Shown here piece by piece: positions 1 to 53,230 of a stretch of 64,000 bases of DNA. Position 1 is the stretch's first letter; each line of letters starts with the position of its first letter. Made by a program: the position numbers and the translations under genes. The DNA is from Mobula hypostoma (taxonomy: Eukaryota): assembly GCF_963921235.1 (NCBI RefSeq), contig NC_086097.1:119848001-119912000 (forward strand), written 5' to 3'. The notes beneath the pieces are model-generated. The model saw only the letters and a list, made by a program, of their open reading frames with translations, did no database searches and was not told where the DNA came from.

Positions 1-293
1 GATACTATCCCTAATTTCCCTTGTCAGCCACGGGTGCACTACCTTCCCTGATATATTCTTTTGCCAAACTGGGATGAACAATTGTTGTAGTTCATCCACG
101 CGATCTTTAAATGCTTGCCATTGCATATCCACCGTCAACCCTTTAAGTGTCATTTGCCAGTCTATCCTAGCTAATTCACGTCTCATACCTTCAAAGTTAC
201 CCTTCTTTAAGTTTAGAACCTTTGTTTCTGAATTAACTATGTCACTCTCCATCTTAATGAAGAATTCCACCATATTATGGTCACTCTTACCCA
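1..293 (-). mobile_element. CR1 LINE ORF2 fragment (same family as 32160-36215 and 49325-53230), runs off the window edge
   Basis: Near-identical to the reverse complement of ~33930-34222 and ~50925-51215 (region encoding LGKSDHNMVEFF...HPWLTREIRDSI). Confidence 0.93.
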
Positions 294-1588
294 AGTCAAG
301 AATATCACTGGTAAAAAGCTCCTCTGTTCTTCAGGTGGATGTTTGAAAGCAAAGGACAGTACCATTATCATGGAAAAATATGAGATTATGAACAAATGGA
401 CTGAGTATATTCAGGAATTGTTTGAAGACGATCGAGGTGAAAAATCAGAAATTAAGAAAAACATTGCAGGTCCAAGTATTTTAAAATCTGAAGCTCATAA
501 TGCAATAAATAAGATGAAGAAAGGAAAGGCAGCAGGTCCTGATGAATTAGTAATAGAACAAATTATCACCCTTAAAGATTATGGAATTGAAATTCTTACT
601 GATTTAATCAATGACAGTTATGAGACTGGAATAATACCAGCAGAGATGAAAAAATCAGTATTTATCACTCTTCCTAAGAAAGCTGGAGCAATAGAATGTG
701 AATTACATAGGACCATAAGTTTATTGAGTCTTATCACCAAGATACTTCAAAGAATTTTGATGACAAGAGTTAAAAGTAAGATACAAGCTGAAATAGGTAA
801 AGAACAATGTGGTTTTGTGAAAGACAAAGGTACAGGAAATGCAACATTGATGATAAGGATACTATCAGAACAAACTATTCAAGTGCAAAAAGATTTGTTT
901 GTTTGCTTTATCGACTACACAAAAGCATTTGATAAAGTGAAGCACAGTAAGTTATTTGAAATATTACAGAGAACTCTAGATCTAGATTTGAAAGACCTCT
1001 GCCTAGTCAGAAATCTGTACTGGAAACAAACTGCTGCTGTAAGAATAGATGGAGAAGTGAGTCAGTTTACCAAAATCAAGAGTGGCATTAGACAAGGGTA
1101 TGTTTTCTCCCCTGATTTATTTAACGTGGACTGTGGAACAATATTACAAAAAATAGGAGACATCTTGGGAATCAAAGTTGGCAGAGAAAACATCAATAAT
1201 TTCAGATATGCAGATGACACTGTGTTAATTGCAAGTATGGAGGAAGAACTACAAAACTCAATTGATATAGTTGTTGAGGAAAGTGCAAAAATGGGCCTAT
1301 CTATCAATTACAAAAAGACAGAATGTATGGTGGCATCTGAAAAGAAGGAGAATCCTATCTGCAGGCTGAGAATAAACGGGGAGGACATAAAACAAGTACA
1401 AAACTTTTGTTACTTAGGAAGCTGGGTGACATCAGATGGCAGCTGCGACATGGACATCAAAAAAAGAATAGGGATGGCAAAAGACACCTTTATGAGAATG
1501 AAGAGTATACTGACCAATACTAAGCTAGGCATGACAACCCGCCTCAGAGTACTGAAATGTTACGTTTATCCAGTTATCTTATATGGCT
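294..1588 (+). mobile_element. RTE-clade LINE, 5'-truncated, RT region (5' half, interrupted by HERO insertion)
   Basis: ORF 277-1746 has non-LTR RT motifs: KAAGPD, HRTISLLS, EQCGF, FIDYTKAFDKV, GIRQG, NNFRYADDTVL, FCYLGS, YPVILYG. After 1588 the reading frame runs into unrelated sequence. Confidence 0.9.
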
Positions 1589-4500
1589 GTGTACATACAT
1601 CTATTGATGCTTCTGGACACATCTTCAGTGATGTTCCTGGAATCATCGGGTGTTTCGGGTCTTTCAACATCATACAACCTACTCCAGGTGACCCAGCCGG
1701 AGCTGATCAGACCCCAGCTTGTGTCCAGATGGCTAGCTACTTATGACTCCATGGCTCCCCTCTTTTGAGCCACAGCCATCTTGAGGCCCTCTCTGCCACA
1801 TCGGTGGTACTGCGGATGGCTCTCCTCTTCCTCTCTCCCTCGATGCCCAAAACGCTGAAGGCTCTAACTAAAGAATGGGCTATGAATCCCCTACAACCAA
1901 CCTCCACTGGGAGACACCTCGCTCTCCATCCAGCCTGCTGACAGTTGCTGACCAGTCCTGCGTACTTGGAGAGCTTCCTTTCAAAGGCCTCCTCCAAGCT
2001 ATCTTCCCATGGGACTGCCAGCTCCAGCAGCACCACTTGCTTAGTAGACTCAGACACTAGGACAATGTCTGGTCGCAGGGTGGTGGCTGCGATATGGTTG
2101 GGGAACTTCAGCTGCCCTTCGAGGTCCACCAACAGCTGCCAGTCCCTTGCAGAGGTCAGAATGCCTGCAGATGTCCTTTTGGCAGGTATTGGCTGCTCCC
2201 CAGCTCTGACAAAGGCAATGGTCTGCTTGGAGGGTCGGGACCGCTTCGCCCACTCAACTCCTGCGCTGACGGCTTCAGCGACGGTCTTCAGGACCTGATC
2301 ATGCCTCCACCTGTACCGTCCCTCACCAAGTGCCCTTGCACAGCCACTGAGGATGTGCTCCAGGGCTCCTCGCTTGGAGCACAGTGGGCACGCAGATGAC
2401 TCTGCCTTGCCCCATGTGTGCAGGTTTGATGGGCTTGGAAGCACATTGTACACTGTCTGGATGAGAAATTGGATGCGGTGTAGTTCAGCTTTCCAAAGAT
2501 CAGCCCAGGTCATTTTCCTCTCCACCCATTCTCCCATCTTGTCCCAGCTCCCTGTTGCTTCATTCCCACCGCCTTGCAGGCTCTCATCTCCTCCACTACT
2601 GCCCTCACCTCCTCCTGAACTAGACGACGCCTTTCCTCCCCTATGGTGTCCATTTGGGGAGTTGGAAAGGATCCTAGCCCAGCTTGGCCTTGTGTGACCA
2701 TGGCCACCAGCCTCCTGTGACGCAGCCTCGCCTCTGCCTCTGAACAGCTTCCTCTGCCTTCCACTTCCTGCCAGTACTTACTTGGATCCCTGCTCTAGCC
2801 ACCTTCGGGTCACTTGAGTCCCTATACTGTAGCACTTCTCTGGCTCTTGTTACCTTGAATTCTTCCTCCAAGGATTTGAAGGGCAGTTGCAGTTTGTTGT
2901 GGTGTCCATAGAGTGCGATGCTGCTCAGGCTCTTTGGCAGCCCCAGCCATCTCCTGAGGTGGTTGCTAACCCTCCTCTCTAAGGTTTCGACTGTCGAGAT
3001 CGGAACTGCATAGACGAGGAGGGGCCACAGGATTCTGGGAAGAATGCCATGCTGATACACCCAGGCTTTAAACTTCCCAGGTAGGCCAGACTTGTCCACA
3101 GATTTCGGCCAGCCATCCAACTCGGTGCAGGTTGCCTGAATGGATGTTGTGTCCCTTAGAGAGCTGTCAAAAACTTTGCCTAAGCTCTTGACTGGCTTTT
3201 CTGTGATGGTTGGGATGGCTGTGCCTGCGATGCTGAACTGGAACTTGAACTCCACCTTCCCTTTCCTCAGCACCATCGATCTTGATTTGGCAGGTTTGAA
3301 ACGCATCCGGGCCCACTCCACCAGCTTTTCGAGCCCTTGCAGAATCCTCCGGCAGCCTGGGACTGATTCTGTGGTGACTGTGAGGTCATCCATGAATGCC
3401 CTGATAGGTGGTTTCTGTTGAGCGGAATTCATTCTGGGCCCTCTGCACTCTGGTTCAGCAGACTTAGTGAGCATGTTCATGGCTAGGGAGAACAGTGACA
3501 CTGAGATAGTGCACCCTGTGATGATGCCAATCTCCACCTTGTGCCAAGTTGATGTAATTGATCCTGAAGAAACCCTCATCCTGAAGTTGCTGTAATAATC
3601 AGCGATAAGGTCTCTGATTCTGCTGGGGACATGATATTTGGTCAGTGTGAGCTGCACCAGCTTGTGCGGAATGGAGCCATATGCATTTGCCAGGTGGAGC
3701 CACAACACTGACAGGTTGCCCTTGTTCTCTCTGGCCTCCCTGATGAGCTGTGTCACCACACCGGTGTGCTCCAGACTGCCCGGCATCCCTGAAATGCCAC
3801 CCTTCTGGACTGATGTATCAATATAGGTGTTCTTTGCTAGGTAGGTGCACAACCGGTTGGAAACTGCACTGAAGAAGATCTTCGCCTCGACACACAACAG
3901 GGAGATGATGCGAAACTGATCTACCTGGATGGCATTTTCCTCCTTCGGGATCCATTCCCCTTCAGCCACTCTCCACTGTTCTGGGATCTTCCCCCTTCTC
4001 CAGAAGATTCTCAGGACCTTCCACAGATGCAGCTGGAGTTTTGGGCAGTTCTTTACACTTTGTATGAGGTGTTGCTTGGTCCTAGAGCCAAGCTTGCCCT
4101 TGCTTTGCGGACGACCTCTCTGACTTCCTTTAGTTGCAGCTCTGACATGTCGAACTGCACATCCGGTTCTGGTGGGTCTATTAGGATGTCGCACTCTCCC
4201 AACTCCTGCTCTCTTTCAGGATCATTATATATCTTCTTCAGATGTTGGTCTATGTCTTCCTGCGAACAGGCCAGTTTCCCACTGTGCTTCTCCCCCAGCA
4301 ACTCCTTGGTGAACTTGAAGGTGTTGGCGATAAAGGCAGCACGTTTTCGGGCCCTTTCAGGACACCGTCTCCGATGCCACTCTGCCCGGCGGAGGACCCT
4401 GATCTTCTTTCGTAGTATGCTCATCAGCTGGGCCAAGCCATTGCGCTCCTCTTCTCCTGCCTCCTTGTATTGGGACTTCAGTGCTTTCATCTCCTGCCGG

Positions 4501-5219
4501 ATGTTGTGGATCCTCGATGCTCTTTGGTTCTTCGAGTAAGATGTTTTGGAGCCTTCCTTCTCCTCTTCTCCAAACCGTTCAGCTGCGATACTGACAATAA
4601 TTGTTGTCATGGCTTGCAGCTTCCTATCAACCCCTCCCTTTGCCGTTGCCTCCAGAATTTGGTTAACATCTTCATCAAACTGCTTCCACAGTGAAGTCAT
4701 GTTAGCTGCAGGCCATTTGATCTGCCTCCTTTTAGACTTCATGTTCGAGGGATTAGTTTGCAACACTTGGAGGTTCCGGGCACTATGGGGTGATTCCGGG
4801 CCTGGCCCCTCCTTTGTCTCACCAGGTTGGACACCTGCGCGTTGTGCTGCTCCTGCTCCCGCCAAACACTTCATCCTCGCTTGGTGGATCTTCAAGCCGC
4901 GATCGTTCTTGCAGATTTTGCCACATGCACACTGCTTCCTCATCGTCGTTTGTTCATTGCCTGGGTCTGATGTCGTTGTGTCCATCCGACTGGGGTGCTC
5001 ATCCTCCCCCCCTCTCGGGCACCCCTGGGAGTATCTTTTCCTTAGATTTTTTGTGGCTTTTGTGGGGGTCCTCCTCTCAGAGGACGCAGATTGGGTTGCC
5101 AGCCCGTTCTGCCCTGGTTGCCGTCTCTCCGGGCTGTCACTGACTCTCCAGTCATCACCACTCTTTTCGTGGTTGTCACCCAGTCTTTCCTGGCTGTCAC
5201 TGATTAACTCAGGGTGTAA
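1586..5219 (-). mobile_element. HERO-like RLE non-LTR retrotransposon, apparently full length (copy A)
   Basis: Single long frameshifted ORF with N-terminal zinc finger, RT, CCHC and PD-(D/E)xK-type nuclease; ~235-nt 5' leader (4986-5219) and ~150-nt 3' UTR (1586-1736). HERO assignment rests on motif style and needs an RT tree. Confidence 0.85.
1737..4985 (-). pseudogene. HERO ORF (ZnF-RT-CCHC-RLE), broken by three frameshifts (~4060, ~2745, ~2540)
   Basis: Consecutive ORFs: 4053-4985 (CACGKICKNDRGLKIHQARMKC), 2674-4194 (FRIISLL, VQKGG, LANAYGSIPH, GIITGCTIS, AFMDDL), 2510-2764, and 1737-2537 (CPLCSKRGALEHILSGC, RWRHDQVL, LRPDIV, LELAVPWE, RKLSKY, VEVGCRG). Confidence 0.9.
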
Positions 5220-5775
5220 GCTGTGTACATGCTTCTGGACACATCTTCAGTGATGTTCCTGGAATCATCCGGTGTTTCGGGTCTTTCAACATCATACAAC
5301 CTCCTCCAGGTGACCCAGCCGGGGCTGATCAGACCCCAGCTTGTGTCCAGATGGCTAGCTACTTATGACTCCATGGCTCCCCTCTTTTGAGCCACAGCCA
5401 TCTTGAGGCCCTCTCTGCCGCATCGGTGGTACTGCGGATGGCTCTCCTCTTCCTCTCTCCCTCGATGCCAAAAATGCTGAAGGCTCTAACTAAAGAACGG
5501 GCTATGAATCCCCTACAACCGACCTCCACTGGGAGACACCTCGCTCTCCATCCAGCCTGCTGACAGTTACTGACCAGTCCTGCGTACTTGGAGAGCTTCC
5601 TTTCAAAGGCCTCCTCCAAGCTATCTTCCCATGGGACTGTCAGCTCCAGCAGCACCACTTGCTCAGCAGACTCAGACACTAGGACAATGTCTGGTCGCAG
5701 GGTGGTGGCTGCGATATGGTTGGTGAACTTCAGCTGCCCTTCGAGGTCCACCAACAGCTGCCAGTCCCTTGCAGA
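5220..5775 (-). mobile_element. Second, 5'-truncated HERO copy (copy B: RLE C-terminus plus 3' UTR), directly upstream of copy A
   Basis: Direct repeat of 1586-2153 with roughly a dozen substitutions and one 12-nt deletion. Confidence 0.93.
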
Positions 5776-6172
5776 TGTTGGACAATATCTAGTAGCATGA
5801 GGAAACGAATTGAAGCAGCAGAGATGTGGTTTTTGAGGAGGATGCAAAGAATATCATGGATGAAACGAATTTCTAACGAGGATGTCATGAACAGAGCAAA
5901 CACAAAAAGAGGAATAATGTATGAGATCATGAAAAGGCAACATAACTTCATTGGACATGTGATTAGGAAAGAGGAGTTAGAATGCACGGTAATTATGGGA
6001 AAGATTGAAGGGAAGAAAGCAAGAGGAAGACAAAGACAAATGATAATGGAGACAGCAGCTAGAGAACTGGAAATGTATACCAATGAATTGATCCACTTGA
6101 CTCGAAACAGGAGTATGTAGGCCATGGCAGTCAAAGCTCAGACTGGGCATGGTACCTGATGATGATGATGAT
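5772..6172 (+). mobile_element. RTE LINE 3' half with (GAT)n tail
   Basis: Encodes CWTISSSMRKRIEAAEMWFLRRMQRISW...GHVIRK...GKIEGKKARGRQR, which continues YPVILYG from 1588; ends in tgatgatgatgatg. Confidence 0.9.
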
Positions 6173-32205: not shown

Positions 32206-33152
32206 ATGACAGCTGAGATCGGCCCGTGGTTTGTTCCTCCTGCAGCATGTGGGAAATCAGGGATACTTCCAGTGTCCCTGACGACTATGTGTGCAGGAAA
32301 TGTGTCCAACTGCAGCTTCTGGCAGACAGCATTGAGTGGCTGGAGCTGCGACTGGATTCATACTGGAGCATCCGCGATGCTGAGAAAGCCGTGAATAGCA
32401 GGTTCAGTGAGTTGGCCACACCGCAGGTAAAGGCTACACAGACAGAAAGGGAATGGGTGGCCACTAGACAGAGTAGCTGTAGGCAGGTAGTGCAGGAGTC
32501 CCCTGAGGTCATCTCCCTCCTAAACAGATATACTGTTTTGGATACTGTTGGGGGAGATGTCTCATCAGAGGAAGGCAGCAGCAGCCGAGTTCATGGCACC
32601 ATGGATGGCTCTGCGGCACAGGAGGGAAGGAAAAGGAGTGGGAGAGCTATAGCGGTAGGGGATTTGATTGTACGGGGAATAGATAGGTGTTTCTGTGGCT
32701 GCAAACGAGACACTAGGAGGGTATGTTGCCTCCCTGGTGCAAGGGTCAAGGATGTCTCTGAGTGGCTGCAGGAAATTCTGGAGTGGGAGGGTGAACAGCC
32801 AGTGGTCATGGTGCACATAGGTACCAATGATATAGGTAAAAAATGGGATGAGGTCCTACAAGGTGAATTTAGGGAGTTAGGAGATAAACTAAAAAGTAGG
32901 ACCACAAAGGTAATAATCTCTGGATTACTACCAGTGCCACGTGCTAGTCAGAGTAGAAATAGGAGGATATTTCAGATGAATACATGGCTTGAAAAATGGT
33001 GCAAGGGGGAGGGATTCAAATTTCTGGGAGATTGGAACCAGTTCTGGAGGAGGTGGGACCGGTACAAACAGGACGGTCTGCATCTGGGCTGGACTGGAAC
33101 CAATGCCCTAGGGGGAGCGTTTGCTACTGTTGTTTAGGAGGATTTAAACTAA
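32206..33152 (+). pseudogene. CR1 ORF1 (zinc finger/leucine zipper plus SGNH esterase)
   Basis: CSSCSMWE...CRKC, GDL (GDS serine lost), CLPGA, VHIGTND, DGLHL. Frameshift just after ATG 32206; premature TAG at 33135 ahead of the natural TAA at 33150. Confidence 0.88.
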
Positions 33153-36100
33153 TGTGGCAGGGGGATGGGTACAAGTGCAGAGAGACACAGGGGTGTAAAA
33201 TGAGGGTAGAAGCAAAAAGTAGTAAGGTGAAAAGTAAAAGTGGCAGGCCGACAAATCCAGGGCAAAAATCAAAAGGGGACACTTTTCAACATAATTGTAT
33301 AAGGGCTAAGAGTGTTGTAAAAGCAGGCCTGAAGACTTTGTGTGTCAATGCAAGGAGCATTCGTAACAAGGTGGATGAATTGAATTTGCAGATAGTTATT
33401 AATGAATATGATATAGTTGGGATCACAGAGACATGGCTCCAGAGTGACCAAGGATGGGAGCTCAACGTTCAGGGATATTCAATATTCAGGACGGATAGAC
33501 ATGAAAGAAAAGGAGGTGGGGTGGCATTGCTGGTTAGAGAGGAGATTAACGCAATAGAAAGGAAGGACATTAGCCGGGAGGATGTGGAATTGATATTGAT
33601 AGAGCTGCATAACACTAAGGGTCAGAAAACGCTGGTGGGAATTGTGTACAGGCTACCTAACAGTCGTAGTGAGGTTGGGGATGGCATTAAACAGGAAATT
33701 AGAAATGAGTGCAATAAAGGAACAGCAGTTATAATGGGTGACTTCAATCTACATATAGATTTGGTGAACTAAATTGGTAAGGGTGCTGAGGAAGGGGATT
33801 TTTTGGAATGTATGTGGGACAGTTTTCTGAACCAACATGTCGAGGAACCAACTAGAGAGCAGGCCATTCTGGACTGGGCATTGAGTAATGAGGAATGGTT
33901 AGTTAGCAATCTTGTCGTGCGAGGCCCTTTGGGTAAGAGTGACCATAATATGGTGGAATTCTTCATTAAGATGGAGAGTGACATAGTTAATTCAGTAACA
34001 AAGGTTCTGAACTTAAAGAGGGGGAACTTTAAAGGTATGAGACGTGAATTAACTTAGATAGACTGGCAAATGATACTTAAAGGGTTGACGGAGGATATGC
34101 AATGGCAAGCATTTAAAGATTGCATGGATGAACTGCAACAATTGTTCATCCCAGTTTGGCAAAATAATAAACCAGGGAAGGTAGTGCACCTGTGGCTGAC
34201 AAGGTAAATTAGGGATAGTATCAATTCCAAAGAAGAAACAGACAAATTAGCCAGAAAAAGCGGCTCACCTGAGGACTGGGAGAAATTCAGAGTCTAGCAG
34301 AGGAGGAGTAAGGGCTTAATTAGGAAAGGGAAAAAAGATTATGAGAGAACATAAAAACTGACTGTAACATCTTTTATAGGTAGATGAAAAGAAAAAGATT
34401 GGTTAAGACAAATGTACATCCCTTACCGTCAGAAACAGGTGAATTGATCATGGGGAGCAAGGACATGGCAGACCAATTGAATAACTACTTTGGGTCTGTC
34501 TTCACAAAGGAGGGCATAAATAATCTTCCGGAAATAGTAGGGGACTGAGGGTCTAGTGAGAAGGAGGAACTGAGGGAAATATATGTTAGTAGGGAAGTGA
34601 TGTTAGGTAAATTGAAGGGATTGAAGGCAGATAAATCCCCCGGGCTAGATGGTCTGCATCCCAGAGTGCTTAAGGAAGTAGCACAAGAAATAGTGGATGC
34701 ATTAGTGATAATTTTTCAAAACTCTTTAGATTCTGGATTAGTTCTTGAGGATTGGAGGGTGGCTAATGTAACCCCGCTTTTTTAAAAAAAGGAGGGAGAG
34801 AGAAACCGGGGAATTATAGACCGGTAAGACTGACATTGGTGGTGGGCAAAATGCTGAAGTCAGTTATCAAAGATGTGATAACAGCACATTTTGAAAGCGG
34901 TGAAATCATCACATGAAGGCAGCATGGATTTGTGAAAGGAAAATCATGTCTGACGAATCTCATAGAATTATTTGAGGATGTAACTAGTAGAGTGGATAGG
35001 GGAGAACCAGTGGATGTGGTATATTTGGATTTTCAAAAGGCTTTTGACAAGGTCCCACACAGGAGATTAGTGTGCAAACTTAAAGCACACGGTATTGGGG
35101 GTATGGTACTGATGTGGATAGAGAATTGGTTGGCAGACTGGAAGCAAAGAGTGGGAATAAATGGGACCTTTTCAGAATGGCAGGCAGTGACAAGTGGGGT
35201 ACTGTAAGGCTCAGTGCTGGGACCACAGTTGTTTACAATATATATTAATGACTTAGACAAGGGAATTAAATGCAGCATCTCCAAGTTTGCGGATGACACG
35301 AAGCTGGGCGGCAGTGTTAGCTGTGAGGAGGATGCTAAGAGGATGCAGGGTGACTTGGATAGGTTGGGTGAGTGGGCAAATTCATGGCAGATGCAATTTA
35401 ATGTGGATAAATGTGAGGTTATCCACTTTGGTGGCAAGAACAGGAAAACAGATTATTATCTGAATGGTGGCCGATTAGGTATAGGGGAGGTGCAATGAGA
35501 CCTGGGTGTCATTGTACACCAGTCATTGAAAGTGGGCATGCAGGTACAGCAGGCGGTGAAAAAGGGGAATGGTATGCTGGCATTCATAGCAAGCGGATTC
35601 GAGTACAGGAGCAGGGAGGTACTACTGCAGTTGTACAAGGCCTTGGTGAGACCACACCTAGAGTATTGTGTAGAGTTTTGGTCCCTTAATCTGATGAAAG
35701 ACATCCTTGCCATAGAGGGAGTACAAAGAAAGTTCACCAGATTGATTCCTGGGATGGTAGGACTTTCATATGATGAAAGACTGGATCAACTAGGCTTATA
35801 CTCATTGGAATTTAGAAAATTGTGGGGGGATCTTACTGAAACGTATAAAATACTAAAGGGATTGGACAGGCTAGATGCAGGAAGATTGTTCCCAATGTTG
35901 TGGAAGTCCAGAATGAGGGGTCACAGTTTGAGGATAAAGGGGAAGCCTTTTAGGACCGAGATTAGGAAGAACTTCTTCACACAGAGAGTGGTGAATCTGT
36001 GTAATTCTCTGCCACAGGAAACAGTTGAGGCCAGTTCATTGGCTGTATTTAAGAGGGAATTAGATAAGGCCCTTGTGGCTAAAGGGATCGGGGGTATGGA
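33143..36100 (+). pseudogene. CR1 ORF2 (APE plus RT), multiple stops and frameshifts
   Basis: NARSI, GITETW, MGDFN, SDH, DKSPG, LDFQKAFDKV, FADDTK, RPHLEYC spread over fragmented ORFs. Confidence 0.92.
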
Positions 36101-38835: not shown

Positions 38836-38871
38836 AGTCCTGACGAAGGGTCTCGGCCTGAAACGTCGACT
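38836..38871 (+). ncRNA. Minimal type I hammerhead ribozyme, intact
   Basis: Stem I AGTC/GACT; CUGACGA at 38840-38846; stem II GGGT-CTCG-GCCT; GAAA at 38860-38863; palindromic ACGU stem III; GUC site predicted to cleave after 38867. Confidence 0.82.
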
Positions 38872-49324: not shown

Positions 49325-52300
49325 ATCTGATAGAGGTGATAGAGAGGAGTTGCAGGCAGGTGGTCACGCCGGGGCCACGGGAGGCAGACAAGTGGGTCAC
49401 AGTTAGGAGGGGGAAGGGGAAAAGTCAGGTAATAGGGAGTACCCCGGTGACTGTACCCCTTAACAACAGGTACTCCTGTTTGAGTACTGTTGGGGGGGAC
49501 AGCTTACCCGGGGGAAGCGACAGTGGCCGTGCCTCCGGCACAGAGTCTGGCCCTGTAGCTCAGAAGGGTAGGGCAAGGAAGAGGAGGGCAGTTGTGATAG
49601 GGGACTCGATAGTCAGGGGGTCAGATAGGCGATTCTGTGGACGCAGTCCAGAGACCCGGATGGTAGTTTGCCTCCCTGGTGCCAGGGTCCGGGATATTTC
49701 TGATCGTGCCAAGATATCCTGAAGTGGGAGGGTGAGAAGCCAGAGGTCGTGGTACATATAGGTACCAATGACATAGGTAGGAAAAGGGATGAGGTCCTGA
49801 AACGAGAATATAGGGAGCTAGGAAGGGAGTTGAGAAAAAAGACCGCAAAGGTAGTAATCTCGGGATTGCTGCCTGTGCCACGCGACAGTGAGAGTAGGAA
49901 TGCGATGAGGTGGAGGATAAATGCGTGGCTGAGGGATTGGAGCAGGGGGCAGGGATTCAAGTTTTTGGATCATTGGGACCTCTTTTGGCGCAGGCGTGAC
50001 CAGTACAAAAAGGACGGGTTACACTTGAATCCTAGGGGGACCAATATCCTGGCAGGGAGATTAGCAGGGGCTACTGAGGTGACTTTAAAGTAGAATGGTT
50101 GGGGGGTGGGAATCAAATTAAAGAGGCTGGGCGTGAGGAGGTTAGTTCACAACAGGGGAATGGGAACCAGTGCAGAGAGACAGAGGGGTGTAAAGTGAGG
50201 GTAGAAGCAAAAAGTACTAAGGAGAAAAGTAAAAGTGGCAGGCCGACAAATCCAGGGCAAGCATTAAAAAGGGCCACTTTTCAACATAATTGTATAAGGG
50301 CTAAGAGAGTTGTAAAAGAGCGCCTGAAGGCTTTGTGTGTCAATGCAAGGAGCATTCGTAATAAGGTGGATGAATTGAAAGTGCAGATTGTTATTAATGA
50401 TTATGATATAGTTGGGATCACAGAGACATGGCTCCAGGGTGACCAGGGATGGGAGCTCAACGTTCAGGGATATTCAATATTCAGGAGGGATAGACATGAA
50501 GGAAGGGGAGGTGGGGTGGCGTTGCTGGTTAAAGAAGAGATTAACGCAATAGGAAGGAAGGACATAAGCCGGGAAGATGTGGAATCGATATGGGTAGAGC
50601 TGCGTAACACTAAGGGGCAGAAGACGCTGGTGGGAGTTGTGTACAGGCCACCTAACAGTAGTAGTGAGATCGGAGATGGTATTAAACAGGAAATTAGAAA
50701 TGTGTGCAATAATGGAACAGCAGTTATGATGGATGACTTCAATCTACATGTAGATTGGGTGAACCAAATTGGTAAAGGTGCTGAGGAAGAGGATTTCTTG
50801 GAATGTATGCGGGATGGTTTTTTGAACCAACATGTCAAGGAACCAACTGGAGAGCAGGCTATTCTGGACTGGGTTTTGAGCAATGAGGAAGGGTTAATTA
50901 GCGATCTTGTCGTGAGAGGCCCCTTGGGTAAGAGTGACCATAATATGGTGGAATTCTTCATTAATATGGAGATTGACATAGTTAATTCAGAAACAAAGGT
51001 TCTGAACTTAAAGAGGGGTAACTTTGAAGGTATGAGACGTGAATTAGCTAAGATAGACTGGCAAATGACACTTAAAGGATTGACGGTGGATATGCAATGG
51101 CAAGCATTTAAAGGTTGCATGGATGAACTACAACAATTGTTCATCCCAGTTTGGCAAAAGAATAAATCAAGGAAGGTAGTGCACCCGTGGCTGACAAGAG
51201 AAATTAGGGATAGTATCAATTCCAAAGAAGAAGCATACAAATTAGCCAGAGAAAGTGGCTCACCTGAGGACTGGGAGAAATTCAGAGTTCAGCAGAGGAG
51301 GACAAAGGGCTTAATTAGGAAGGGGAAAAAAGATTATGAGAGAAAACTGGCAAGGAACATAAAAACGGATTGTAAAAGCTTTTATAGATATGTAAAAAGG
51401 AAAAGACTGGTGAAGACAAATGTAGGTCCCCTGCAGACAGAAACAGGTGAATTGATTATGGGGAGCAAGGACATGGCAGACCAATTGAATAATTACTTTG
51501 GTTCTGTCTTCACTGAGGAGGACATAAATAATCTTCCAGAAATAGTAGGGGACAGAGGGTCCAGTGAGATGGAGGAACTGAGCGAAATACATGTTAGTAG
51601 GGAAGTGGTATTAGGTAAATTGAAGGGATTGAAGGCAGATAAATCCCCAGGGCCAGATGGTCTGCATCCTGGAGTGCTTAAGGAAGTAACCCAAGAAATA
51701 GTGGATGCATTAGTGATAATTTTTCAAAACTCGTTAGATTCTGGACTAGTTCCTGAGGATTGGAGGGTGGCTAATGTAACCCCACTTTTTAAAAAAGGAG
51801 GGAGAGAGAAACCGGGGAATTATAGACCGGTTAGCCTAACGTCGGTGGTGGGGAAACTGCTGGAGTCAGTTATCAAGGATGTGATAACAGCACATTTGGA
51901 AAGCGGTGAAAAGATCGGACAAAGTCAGCATGGATTTGTGAAAGGAAAATCATGTCTGACGAATCTCATAGAATTTTTTGAGGATGTAACTAGTAGAGTG
52001 GATAGGGGAGAACCAGTGGATGTGGTATATTTGGATTTTCAAAAGGCTTTTGACAAGGTCCCACACAGGAGATTAGTGTGCAAACTTAAAGCACACGGTA
52101 TTGGGGGTAAGGTATTGGTGTGGGTGGAGAATTGGTTAGCAGACAGGAAGCAAAGAGTGGGAATAAACGGGACCTTTTCAGAATGGCAGGCGGTGACTAG
52201 TGGGGTACCGAAAGGCTCAGTGCTGGGACCACAGTTGTTTACAATATATATTAATGACTTGGATAAGGGAATTAAATGCAGCACCTCCAAATTTGCGGAT

Positions 52301-53230
52301 GACACGAAGCTGGGTGGCAGTGTTAGCTGTGAGGAGGATGCTAAGAGGATGCAGGGTGACTTGGATAGGTTGGGTGAGTGGGCAAATTCATGGCAGATGC
52401 AATTTAATGTGGATAAATGTGAAGTTATCCACTTTGGTGGCAAAAACAGGAAAACAGTTTATTATCTGAATGGTGGCCGATTAGGAAAAGGGGAGGTGCA
52501 ACGAGACCTGGGTGTCATTATACACCAGTCATTGAAAGTGGGCATGCAGGTACAGCAGGCGGTGAAAAAGGCGAATGGTATGCTGGCATTTATAGCAAGA
52601 GGATTCGAGTACAGGAGCAGGGAGGTACTACTGCAGTTGTACAAGGCCTTGGTGAGACCACACCTGGAGTATTGTGTGCAGTTTTGGTCCCCTAATCTGA
52701 GGAAAGACATCCTTGCCTTAGAGGGAGTACAAAGAAGTTTCACCAGATTGATTCCTGGGATGGCAGAACTTTCATATGAAGAAAGACTGGATGAACTGGG
52801 CTTGTACTCGTTGGAATTTAGAAGATTGAGGGGGGATCTGATTGAAACGTATAAGATCCTAAAGGGATTGGACAGGCTAGATGCAGGAAGATTGTTCCCG
52901 ATGTTGGGGAAGTCCAGAACGAGGGGCCACAGTTTGAGGATAGAGGGGTAGCCTTTTAGGACCGAGATTAGGAAAAACTTCTTCACACAGAGAGTGGTGA
53001 ATCTGTGGAATTCTCTGCCACAGGAAACAGTTGAGGCCAGTTCATTAGCTATATTTAAGAGGGGGTTAGATATGGCCCTTGTGGCTATGGGGATCAGGGG
53101 GTATGGAGGGAAGGCTGGGGCGGGGTTCTGAGTTGGATGATCAGCCACGATCATGATAAATGGCGGTGCAGGCTTGAAGGGCCGAATGGCCTACTCCTGC
53201 ACCTATTTTCTATGTTTCTATGTTTCTATG
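49325..53230 (+). mobile_element. CR1 (HER1-like) LINE, copy 2, 5'-truncated in ORF1, young
   Basis: Esterase half of ORF1 (GDSIVRG, CLPGA, VHIGTND, DGLHL; one frameshift at ~49710), long ORF2, (TTTCTATG)3 tail. Confidence 0.96.
50084..52951 (+). CDS. CR1 ORF2 APE endonuclease plus reverse transcriptase, ~950 aa open; premature TAG at 52949 removes the C-terminal tail
   Basis: Uninterrupted frame with NARSI, GITETW, VYRPP, SDH, NYRPVSLTS, QHGF, LDFQKAFDKV, GVPKGSVLGP, FADDTK. Copy 1 has AAG at the stop position and continues PFRTEIRKNFFTQRVVNL. Confidence 0.93.
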   Translation, partial: FKVEWLGGGNQIKEAGREEVSSQQGNGNQCRETEGCKVRVEAKSTKEKSKSGRPTNPGQALKRATFQHNCIRAKRVVKERLKALCVNARSIRNKVDELKVQIVINDYDIVGITETWLQGDQGWELNVQGYSIFRRDRHEGRGGGVALLVKEEINAIGRKDISREDVESIWVELRNTKGQKTLVGVVYRPPNSSSEIGDGIKQEIRNVCNNGTAVMMDDFNLHVDWVNQIGKGAEEEDFLECMRDGFLNQHVKEPTGEQAILDWVLSNEEGLISDLVVRGPLGKSDHNMVEFFINMEIDIVNSETKVLNLKRGNFEGMRRELAKIDWQMTLKGLTVDMQWQAFKGCMDELQQLFIPVWQKNKSRKVVHPWLTREIRDSINSKEEAYKLARESGSPEDWEKFRVQQRRTKGLIRKGKKDYERKLARNIKTDCKSFYRYVKRKRLVKTNVGPLQTETGELIMGSKDMADQLNNYFGSVFTEEDINNLPEIVGDRGSSEMEELSEIHVSREVVLGKLKGLKADKSPGPDGLHPGVLKEVTQEIVDALVIIFQNSLDSGLVPEDWRVANVTPLFKKGGREKPGNYRPVSLTSVVGKLLESVIKDVITAHLESGEKIGQSQHGFVKGKSCLTNLIEFFEDVTSRVDRGEPVDVVYLDFQKAFDKVPHRRLVCKLKAHGIGGKVLVWVENWLADRKQRVGINGTFSEWQAVTSGVPKGSVLGPQLFTIYINDLDKGIKCSTSKFADDTKLGGSVSCEEDAKRMQGDLDRLGEWANSWQMQFNVDKCEVIHFGGKNRKTVYYLNGGRLGKGEVQRDLGVIIHQSLKVGMQVQQAVKKANGMLAFIARGFEYRSREVLLQLYKALVRPHLEYCVQFWSPNLRKDILALEGVQRSFTRLIPGMAELSYEERLDELGLYSLEFRRLRGDLIETYKILKGLDRLDAGRLFPMLGKSRTRGHSLRIEG

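Follow-up and report, generated by a model that had tools for sequence, protein, structure and literature searches.

Results

Organization of the HERO locus

The window analyzed here comprises 64,000 nt of contig NC_086097.1 of Mobula hypostoma. On its minus strand it contains a full-length non-LTR retrotransposon of the HERO type (Table 1), and no target-site duplication was seen where this element interrupts an older LINE. The ORF is split into three frames (4053-5246, 2674-4215 and 1737-2777, minus strand, with RT and zinc-binding matches) and comprises an N-terminal zinc finger, the RT, a CCHC knuckle and a PD..D/ExK endonuclease motif. The element combines RT with a C-terminal CCHC motif and RLE, has no APE, and clusters with reference proteins of the HERO clade. 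For its C-terminal part 189 relatives were found, mainly teleost and amphioxus proteins. In a quick tree the element groups with the pufferfish proteins BAC82598, BAC82599 and AAN12398, which we take to be HEROFr, HEROTn and Zebulon; a group of ten rows with support 99 includes pufferfish, Danio and Branchiostoma proteins. With 1840 exact matches spanning the cut site predicted below, HERO copies in this genome number in the thousands.

A 5'-truncated repeat of the 3' end precedes the element, and the two copies of the 3' end are 97.5% identical over 550 nt. The two minus-strand copies of a folded 3' UTR motif reported by the first-pass annotation are located at 5234-5351 (copy A) and 1612-1729 (copy B). 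A deletion of 12 nt, present in copy A and in locus L023 and absent from copy B, removes the true terminal hairpin, GCAUC...GAUGU, which lies further 3' than the one first proposed. This hairpin is conserved in the window and in relatives, and ends with UGUAU about 10 nt before the end of the insertion. The 5' UTR opens with four to five short purine-loop hairpins with GUGAC/UGAC spacers. This array, possibly a protein-binding or translation element, is kept in the distant relatives L065, L067, L069, L076 and L084.

Other repeats of the window include a canonical-order minimal motif, CUGAnGA-short stem-GAAA, at 38840 (plus), 47266 (minus) and 38230 (minus), which resembles the small hammerheads found in Penelope-like elements; related sequence seems to be present in L227 and L231. 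Further LINE ORFs on the plus strand (32217-33772 and 50078-52951) are one for a GDSL esterase with an APE fragment behind it and an APE-RT frame of 957 aa.

Table 1. Features of the HERO locus and of both copies of the 3' UTR motif; positions refer to the window.
Feature	Position (element or copy A)	Position (copy B)	Strand	Remarks
Older RT-bearing LINE, recipient of the insertion	232..1586, resumes after ~5779		plus	
HERO-type RLE non-LTR element, full-length	1587..5220		minus	ORF matches
Copy A, upstream repeat of the element's 3' end, 5'-truncated	5221..5778		minus	directly joined to the full-length element at its 5' start
5' UTR	5085..5220		minus	directly after the invariant 3'-5' junction; array of short hairpins
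P1 5' strand (closing helix)	5342..5351	1720-1729	minus	covariation
P2 hairpin, abuts P1 and stem II without linker	5317..5341	1695-1719	minus	covariation
Stem II 5' strand GGGUC, G10.1 first, displaced upstream	5312..5316	1690-1694	minus	
P4 5' strand and GA, K-turn NC side	5302..5310	1680-1688 (G>U at 1681)	minus	
Stem III 5' strand GGUUGU and H17 (A)	5295..5301		minus	predicted cut 5295/5294 (copy B 1673/1672)
Stem I post-cut strand UGAUGUU	5288..5294	1666-1672	minus	
Stem II 3' strand GACCC, core G12-A13-A14, stem III 3' strand	5270..5283	1648-1661	minus	
K-turn bulge GAU, GA, P4 3' strand	5258..5269	1636-1647	minus	
Stem I 3' strand AACAUCA and core CUGAAGA (C3-A9)	5244..5257	1622-1635	minus	
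P1 3' strand, directly after A9	5234..5243	1612-1621	minus	
Terminal hairpin and tail where insertions stop		1587..1610	minus	likely RT initiation element; 12 nt of it missing in copy A

Relatives of the 3' UTR motif

Folding of the single sequences gave only modest values (z = -2.4 for copy A and -1.4 for copy B), and relatives were therefore gathered for a covariation analysis. The collection consists of 79 metagenome loci, taken from the best 80 of at least 205 confirmed ones, and three loci from genome records, 82 loci altogether. In the 3' UTRs the sequence GAAAC is followed 20-40 nt on by CUGAnGA, which corresponds to the hammerhead core in reversed order. A strict descriptor of this arrangement matched 29 times in 28 of the 82 loci (the metagenome part being the best 80 of at least 205), always on the ORF strand, and exactly twice in the window, with H17 at 5295 and 1673; shuffling the 274,641 nt ten times yielded no match. 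A relaxed descriptor, which neither fixed U16.1 or H17 nor required P1, P2 and P4, gave 46 rows in 41 loci, and nine matches in three shuffles. After omission of six rows (L087, two of L099, an additional parse of L080, and duplicates of L063 and L068 at contig starts) 40 instances were counted.

Using a covariance model, 51 matches were obtained in 83 sources, among them only the two known ones in the window. Four further full-length matches were found in this way: the core is kept in L121 and, with a changed U16.1, in L123, and is decayed in L118 and L101. Two further HERO-like families of this genome share the fold (1231 pattern matches; 28 of 30 inspected belong to these families). None of the Rfam covariance models, to which the first-pass annotation had pointed as a check, matched over the motif in the window (E<=10) or in 14 relative loci (E<=1). 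Viral contigs contained no protein relative, and none of 80 viral matches to the core letters forms the stems.

The motif is kept in relatives down to about 35% protein identity (range about 35-80%), and it is not universal. A weakly supported side of the tree with 24 rows at 33-39% identity is without a retained match, and the motif is absent from L081, L093, L096, L097 and L136 despite 319-2676 nt of downstream sequence; the remaining loci without a match are truncated contigs or decayed copies. The ORF ends of Takifugu, Tetraodon, the Danio cluster and Branchiostoma read like a translated 5' half of the motif, which therefore appears to span teleosts and amphioxus, as judged for these named taxa by translated ORF ends only, in addition to the metagenome hosts. 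In many fish families (P0004, P0040, P0042, P0097, P0104 and others) the ORF extends into the 5' half of the motif, so that coding and structure overlap. Three matches in prokaryote genome records were rejected as evidence of range because they look like eukaryotic contamination. The HERO relative in L141 (1617-2465) is closely followed by three tRNA genes, and targeting of tRNA clusters is possible; its contig is part of a bacterial MAG, perhaps as contamination. L142, a contig of 539 kb assigned to a Rhodospirillales MAG, carries LINE-like sequence with two motif copies and looks eukaryotic.

Six helices covary

A MAFFT alignment of 37 sequences, with ends set from the descriptor, was used for the covariation analysis. 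In the six helices 85.1% of 1405 cells are paired, compared with 59.4% in a shuffle control that ignores phylogeny and with 35-41% when the partners are slid; the covariation score is 0.63 versus 0.21, and 36 of the 40 base pairs show double changes. All four helices that had been drawn from the two window copies, apart from the pseudoknot and the terminal hairpin, are supported: the 10-bp closing stem P1 (79.6% of cells paired, double changes in 10/10 pairs), the GCUGGGG hairpin P2 (78.6%, 8/8), the helix CCUGGAG/UUCCAGG, here P4 (79.6%, 6/7), and GGUUGU/ACACCC, which is stem III (95.5%, 5/6). The pairing GGGUC/GACCC is likewise conserved (94.5%, 3/5), and what had been described as a pseudoknot corresponds to stem II of a hammerhead. 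The proposed terminal hairpin ACAUC/GAUGU, in contrast, is paired in 39.5% of cells versus 36.7% after shuffling and has to be abandoned. Its ACAUC belongs to stem I (UGAUGUU/AACAUCA; 95.6%, 4/4), the sixth helix, which had been overlooked, and its GAUGU overlaps G8-A9 and the closing stem.

An MI-APC analysis that was given no structure (36 rows, effective number about 24, with L142 excluded as misaligned) placed its top 19 of 6932 column pairs without exception inside the six helices. RNAalifold by itself returned only P1, part of P2 and stem II; it misses the other helices because they cross these three. We regard the six-helix fold, on the strength of this covariation, as nearly certain.

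The first-pass annotation had also read a kink-turn from the consensus of the two copies, each with one substitution, and these are present (C>G at 5270 in copy A, G>U at 1681 in copy B). Tandem GA/GA pairs with a 3-nt bulge recur in 26 of the 40 instances, where they cap stem III, and are lacking in 14. The Kt-7/U4 consensus comprises a C stem, a 3-nt bulge, tandem GA/AG and an NC stem, and these 26 instances possess all of them; unlike Kt-7/U4, the HERO K-turn would be a replaceable brace inside a ribozyme fold. In eight of the 14 exceptions (L078, L079, L124, L089, L090, L091, L105 and L112) a bulge in the opposite strand replaces it, which suggests that the bend and not an L7Ae site is conserved. 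The K-turn had been put forward as a site that recruits a host protein of the L7Ae family (15.5K/SNU13) for RT recognition. The K-turn consensus of the 26 instances agrees with this, as does the third bulge position, which is U in 20 of them; 15.5K prefers U in the K-turn bulge. Given that the K-turn is absent from the 14 others, several of which use another bulge, and that the invariant letters belong to the hammerhead core and not to the K-turn, such recruitment is very improbable as the main role. L7Ae binding may aid folding, which would be compatible with a ribozyme. RT recognition is more likely exerted by the downstream hairpin and the tail where copies end.

A hammerhead core in a rearranged order

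As far as sequence and covariation can tell, the 3' UTR motif contains a complete hammerhead catalytic core, rearranged in order and enclosed by the six covarying helices. The residues C3 U4 G5 A6 N7 G8 A9 and G12 A13 A14 are present, and stems I, II and III covary. From 5' to 3' the motif starts with P1a, the P2 hairpin, stem IIa, P4a with GA, stem IIIa and H17. Behind the cut predicted after H17 by analogy to hammerheads follow stem Ia, a linker, stem IIb, GAAA, stem IIIb, the bulge with GA, P4b, stem Ib, CUGAnGA and P1b.

The core CUGAnGA/GAA is exact in 37 of 40 instances and in both window copies, its letters being partly imposed by the search; as instances were chosen by core letters and by stems I-III, conservation of these is partly circular. 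Among the positions left free by the search, the pair U16.1-A15.1, whose U16.1 was not fixed, occurs in 40/40 instances, and H17, also not fixed, is variable but non-G in 39/40 (U16 C12 A11 G1). N7 is free (U27 A10 C2 G1), and G10.1-C11.1 is found in 37/40. This pattern, a non-G H17, a free N7 and fixed G8 and G12, follows the catalytic rules of hammerheads and points to a motif that is probably catalytically active.

The closest likeness is to the type-SGC hammerheads described in the accessible text of Eckert et al. 2023 (PMC10085705). These share with the HERO motif the block order S, G, C, the short linker between stems I and II, the core letters and an extra helix that ties stems I and II together at their other ends; by analogy, P4 would be the equivalent of this interaction helix and would provide the peripheral contact of stems I and II. 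According to the same source, type-SGC ribozymes (HRIMA-1) cleave, and in some the interaction helix is directly joined to stem III; in the HERO motif a K-turn or a bulge connects the two. The decisive difference concerns block C. It is split in the HERO motif: A9 leads into the closing helix P1 of a four-way junction instead of directly into a strand of stem II, whose 5' strand is located upstream. Since A9 does not directly precede a stem II strand, the HERO motif falls outside the published definition of type SGC. A canonical block C was considered and rejected, because the strand after A9 makes 0-4 of 5 pairs with GACCC versus 4-5 of 5 made by the upstream strand (40 instances). In 29 of 40 instances the chain A9-P1-P2-G10.1 has no unpaired base. 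The predicted fold is therefore that of a type-SGC core whose two ends are connected by the K-turn, from P4 to stem III, and whose chain is opened again between A9 and G10.1 by a four-helix junction of the core, P1, P2 and stem II.

A viroid hammerhead reportedly tolerates one extra nucleotide between A9 and G10.1, and in the literature searched we found no report of a whole junction inserted at this place. The six permutations in the accessible text of PMC10085705 assume that CUGAnGA is attached to stem II, and these rules exclude a four-way junction between A9 and G10.1. No report of a hammerhead in HERO elements or of this topology was found in the literature covered, which included few subscription papers; neither is reported in the accessible parts of PMC4640811, PMC2684134, PMC7650587, PMC13580325, PMC6765202, PMC3088659 and bioRxiv 10.64898/2026.07.22.740005. 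Tested by sequence and covariation, the HERO motif thus behaves as a hammerhead that departs from the published permutations in one defining feature.

Genomic ends and partial tandems

For an analysis of the ends we used 30 copies collected by the C-terminal protein, 30 full-length copies collected by the 5' UTR alone and 87 unselected 3' ends. All but one of the 30 C-terminal-protein copies stop at one common tail, which lies 86-87 nt beyond the predicted cut, and not one of the 30 continues into a 5' UTR. Among the full-length copies 26 of 30 have their own 3' end repeated upstream, over a length of 36 to about 1890 nt, and one more has about 20 nt of it there. The repeat extends past the predicted cut in 22 of these 26 and begins beside it in one. 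The 3'-5' junction is nearly always identical, with 90 exact matches genome-wide. None of the 87 unselected copies starts within 3 nt of the predicted cut, which indicates that the template is continuous across the cut site. The 3' flanks of the unselected copies favor GC (G in 76/87, C in 51/87), as at the junction.

Derived variants common to both repeats of a locus numbered 42, compared with 15.1 +/- 3.5 after permutation (0/2000), both repeats being comparable in 37 of 41 loci, and the concordance within loci at three polymorphic sites was 15/16, 18/18 and 8/11. The lower value of the third site and the 12-nt deletion confined to copy A in the window run against full concordance. The upstream repeats are on the whole shorter than copies made in a first pass, with 6 of 26 longer than about 400 nt versus 50 of 87, which fits a slowing of the RT on RNA already paired with its own cDNA. 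Long tandem arrays were not seen in 40 extended loci. Among the relatives, L063, L064 and L068 have a partial motif before the ORF, and the motif is followed by an ORF start in 5 of 30 instances, an adjacency that collapsed assemblies could also cause. Four of 24 RNA runs, represented by contigs only, which are unable to show ends, contained no joints or end piles.

In 11 of the 87 unselected copies (L366, L384, L391, L405, L407, L408, L410, L434, L436, L437 and L447) an internal deletion joins nt about 605-683 to about 3271-3354 with differing breakpoints; L011, L012, L015, L024, L030, L150 and L163 are further copies with internal deletions. It appears that the RT has repeatedly jumped about 2.7 kb from one fixed zone to another, and the breakpoints have no pairing or repeats that explain the deletions.

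The first-pass annotation had offered a self-cleaving motif that resolves tandem transcripts as one interpretation. With the full, permuted hammerhead core self-cleavage is the best-supported reading of the motif. A simple resolution into linear units is not, because the ends of the genomic copies do not coincide with the predicted cut, and a linear unit RNA ending at the cut is contradicted by them as well. Insertion of truncated copies into the 5' start of their own element was also ruled out despite the GC-favoring 3' flank, because a flank specificity this weak cannot give an occupancy of 26/30 or variants shared within a locus.

The lack of ends at the cut fits ligation and equally fits an absence of cutting. 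The motif might then be a scaffold derived from a hammerhead, which would serve the RLE/RT protein for recognition or stability and in which the break between A9 and G10.1 would have abolished catalysis; the strand after A9, held in P1 and not paired with stem IIb, and the position outside the six published permutations (as far as given in PMC10085705) agree with this. However, stem II is formed through the upstream strand with the conserved pair G10.1-C11.1 and the mostly linker-free junction, and the catalytic rules are kept across the whole range of protein identity; why a scaffold should obey the rule for the cut site is not obvious. As the concordant partial tandems are left unexplained too, we consider a non-cutting scaffold unlikely.

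The partial tandems could also arise without a circle, if the RT copied uncut read-through multimers from internal positions or jumped between RNA ends, and cutting by an active ribozyme only trimmed or regulated the RNA or aided translation. The RT of R2 is known to jump between RNA ends in this manner. In a Penelope-like element, according to the accessible text of PMC11167929, initiation is internal and unprocessed RNA is the dominant template, and the continuity across the cut site in the HERO copies is in line with such a template. Jumps between different RNAs, however, would not yield concordance within loci or a junction without added bases. Linear read-through would only shorten the upstream repeat with each generation, yet repeats of about 1.9 kb with 5' ends that all differ are found, and the long arrays are missing from the 40 extended loci. 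An active ribozyme without a circle is thus improbable.

Discussion

The reading that we prefer, with a probability of roughly 0.55, is that the motif acts as an active ribozyme that cuts the element RNA and re-ligates it into a circle, on which the RT starts internally. The transcript across a partial-tandem locus would carry two motifs and be cut at both. P1, stem II, P4 and stem III, about 28 bp, would span the nick and hold the two ends of the monomer in one rebuilt ribozyme, which would favor ligation. The RLE/RT protein would prime 86-87 nt downstream of the cut, copy one full turn and run a variable distance into the second one; the overrun would regenerate the upstream ribozyme, as in LTR regeneration. 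Formation of a circle by double cutting and ligation fits best with the invariant junction, the variable repeat length, the shared variants and the continuous template. For the circular RNA template itself, as deduced from the genomic anatomy, we see an even chance. The complete picture, in which HERO elements use a seventh and so far excluded hammerhead topology, a cage braced by the K-turn whose core contains a four-way junction, as a self-ligase that generates a circular RNA of about 3.6 kb for internal priming and more than one round of RT, is put forward tentatively, at slightly less than even odds.

Penelope-like elements and retrozymes likewise have a hammerhead in a terminal repeat and partial-tandem insertions. 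In the accessible texts, initiation is internal for the Penelope-like element PAc, whose hammerhead is dispensable for insertion in vitro and at whose cut no reads end (PMC11167929), and retrozymes have circular RNA intermediates formed through their hammerheads, full-length hammerheads ligating efficiently (PMC6155905). Their hammerheads are of canonical order, usually minimal type I, and belong to GIY-YIG or non-coding elements, whereas the HERO motif is permuted and part of an autonomous RLE-type non-LTR element. The HDV-like ribozymes of R2, L1Tc and RTE are self-cleaving RNAs of non-LTR retrotransposons, as is predicted for the HERO motif, but they are of another class, lie at the 5' end and release linear RNA, while the HERO motif is in the 3' UTR and has its ends away from the cut. 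The type-SGC examples in the accessible text of PMC10085705 come from metatranscriptomes, none of them from genomes of known organisms, in contrast to the HERO motif in eukaryotic retrotransposon DNA. Zebulon of Tetraodon (Bouneau et al. 2003), which belongs to the HERO clade, likewise has a single ORF with RT and RLE. As the accessible part of PMC7599744 cites a pufferfish non-LTR element "with tandem structure" (Bouneau et al. 2003), the tandem anatomy of HERO is probably already known.

If the proposed reading is true, neither the descriptors in current use nor the Rfam models find this hammerhead architecture. Being compact and having helices across the nick, such a ribozyme could serve RNA circularization, and RLE-type LINEs are under development as genome-writing tools. 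For the elements themselves, the partial-tandem structure of HERO would have a mechanism, and circular RNA intermediates would extend from Penelope-like elements and retrozymes to RLE-type LINEs.
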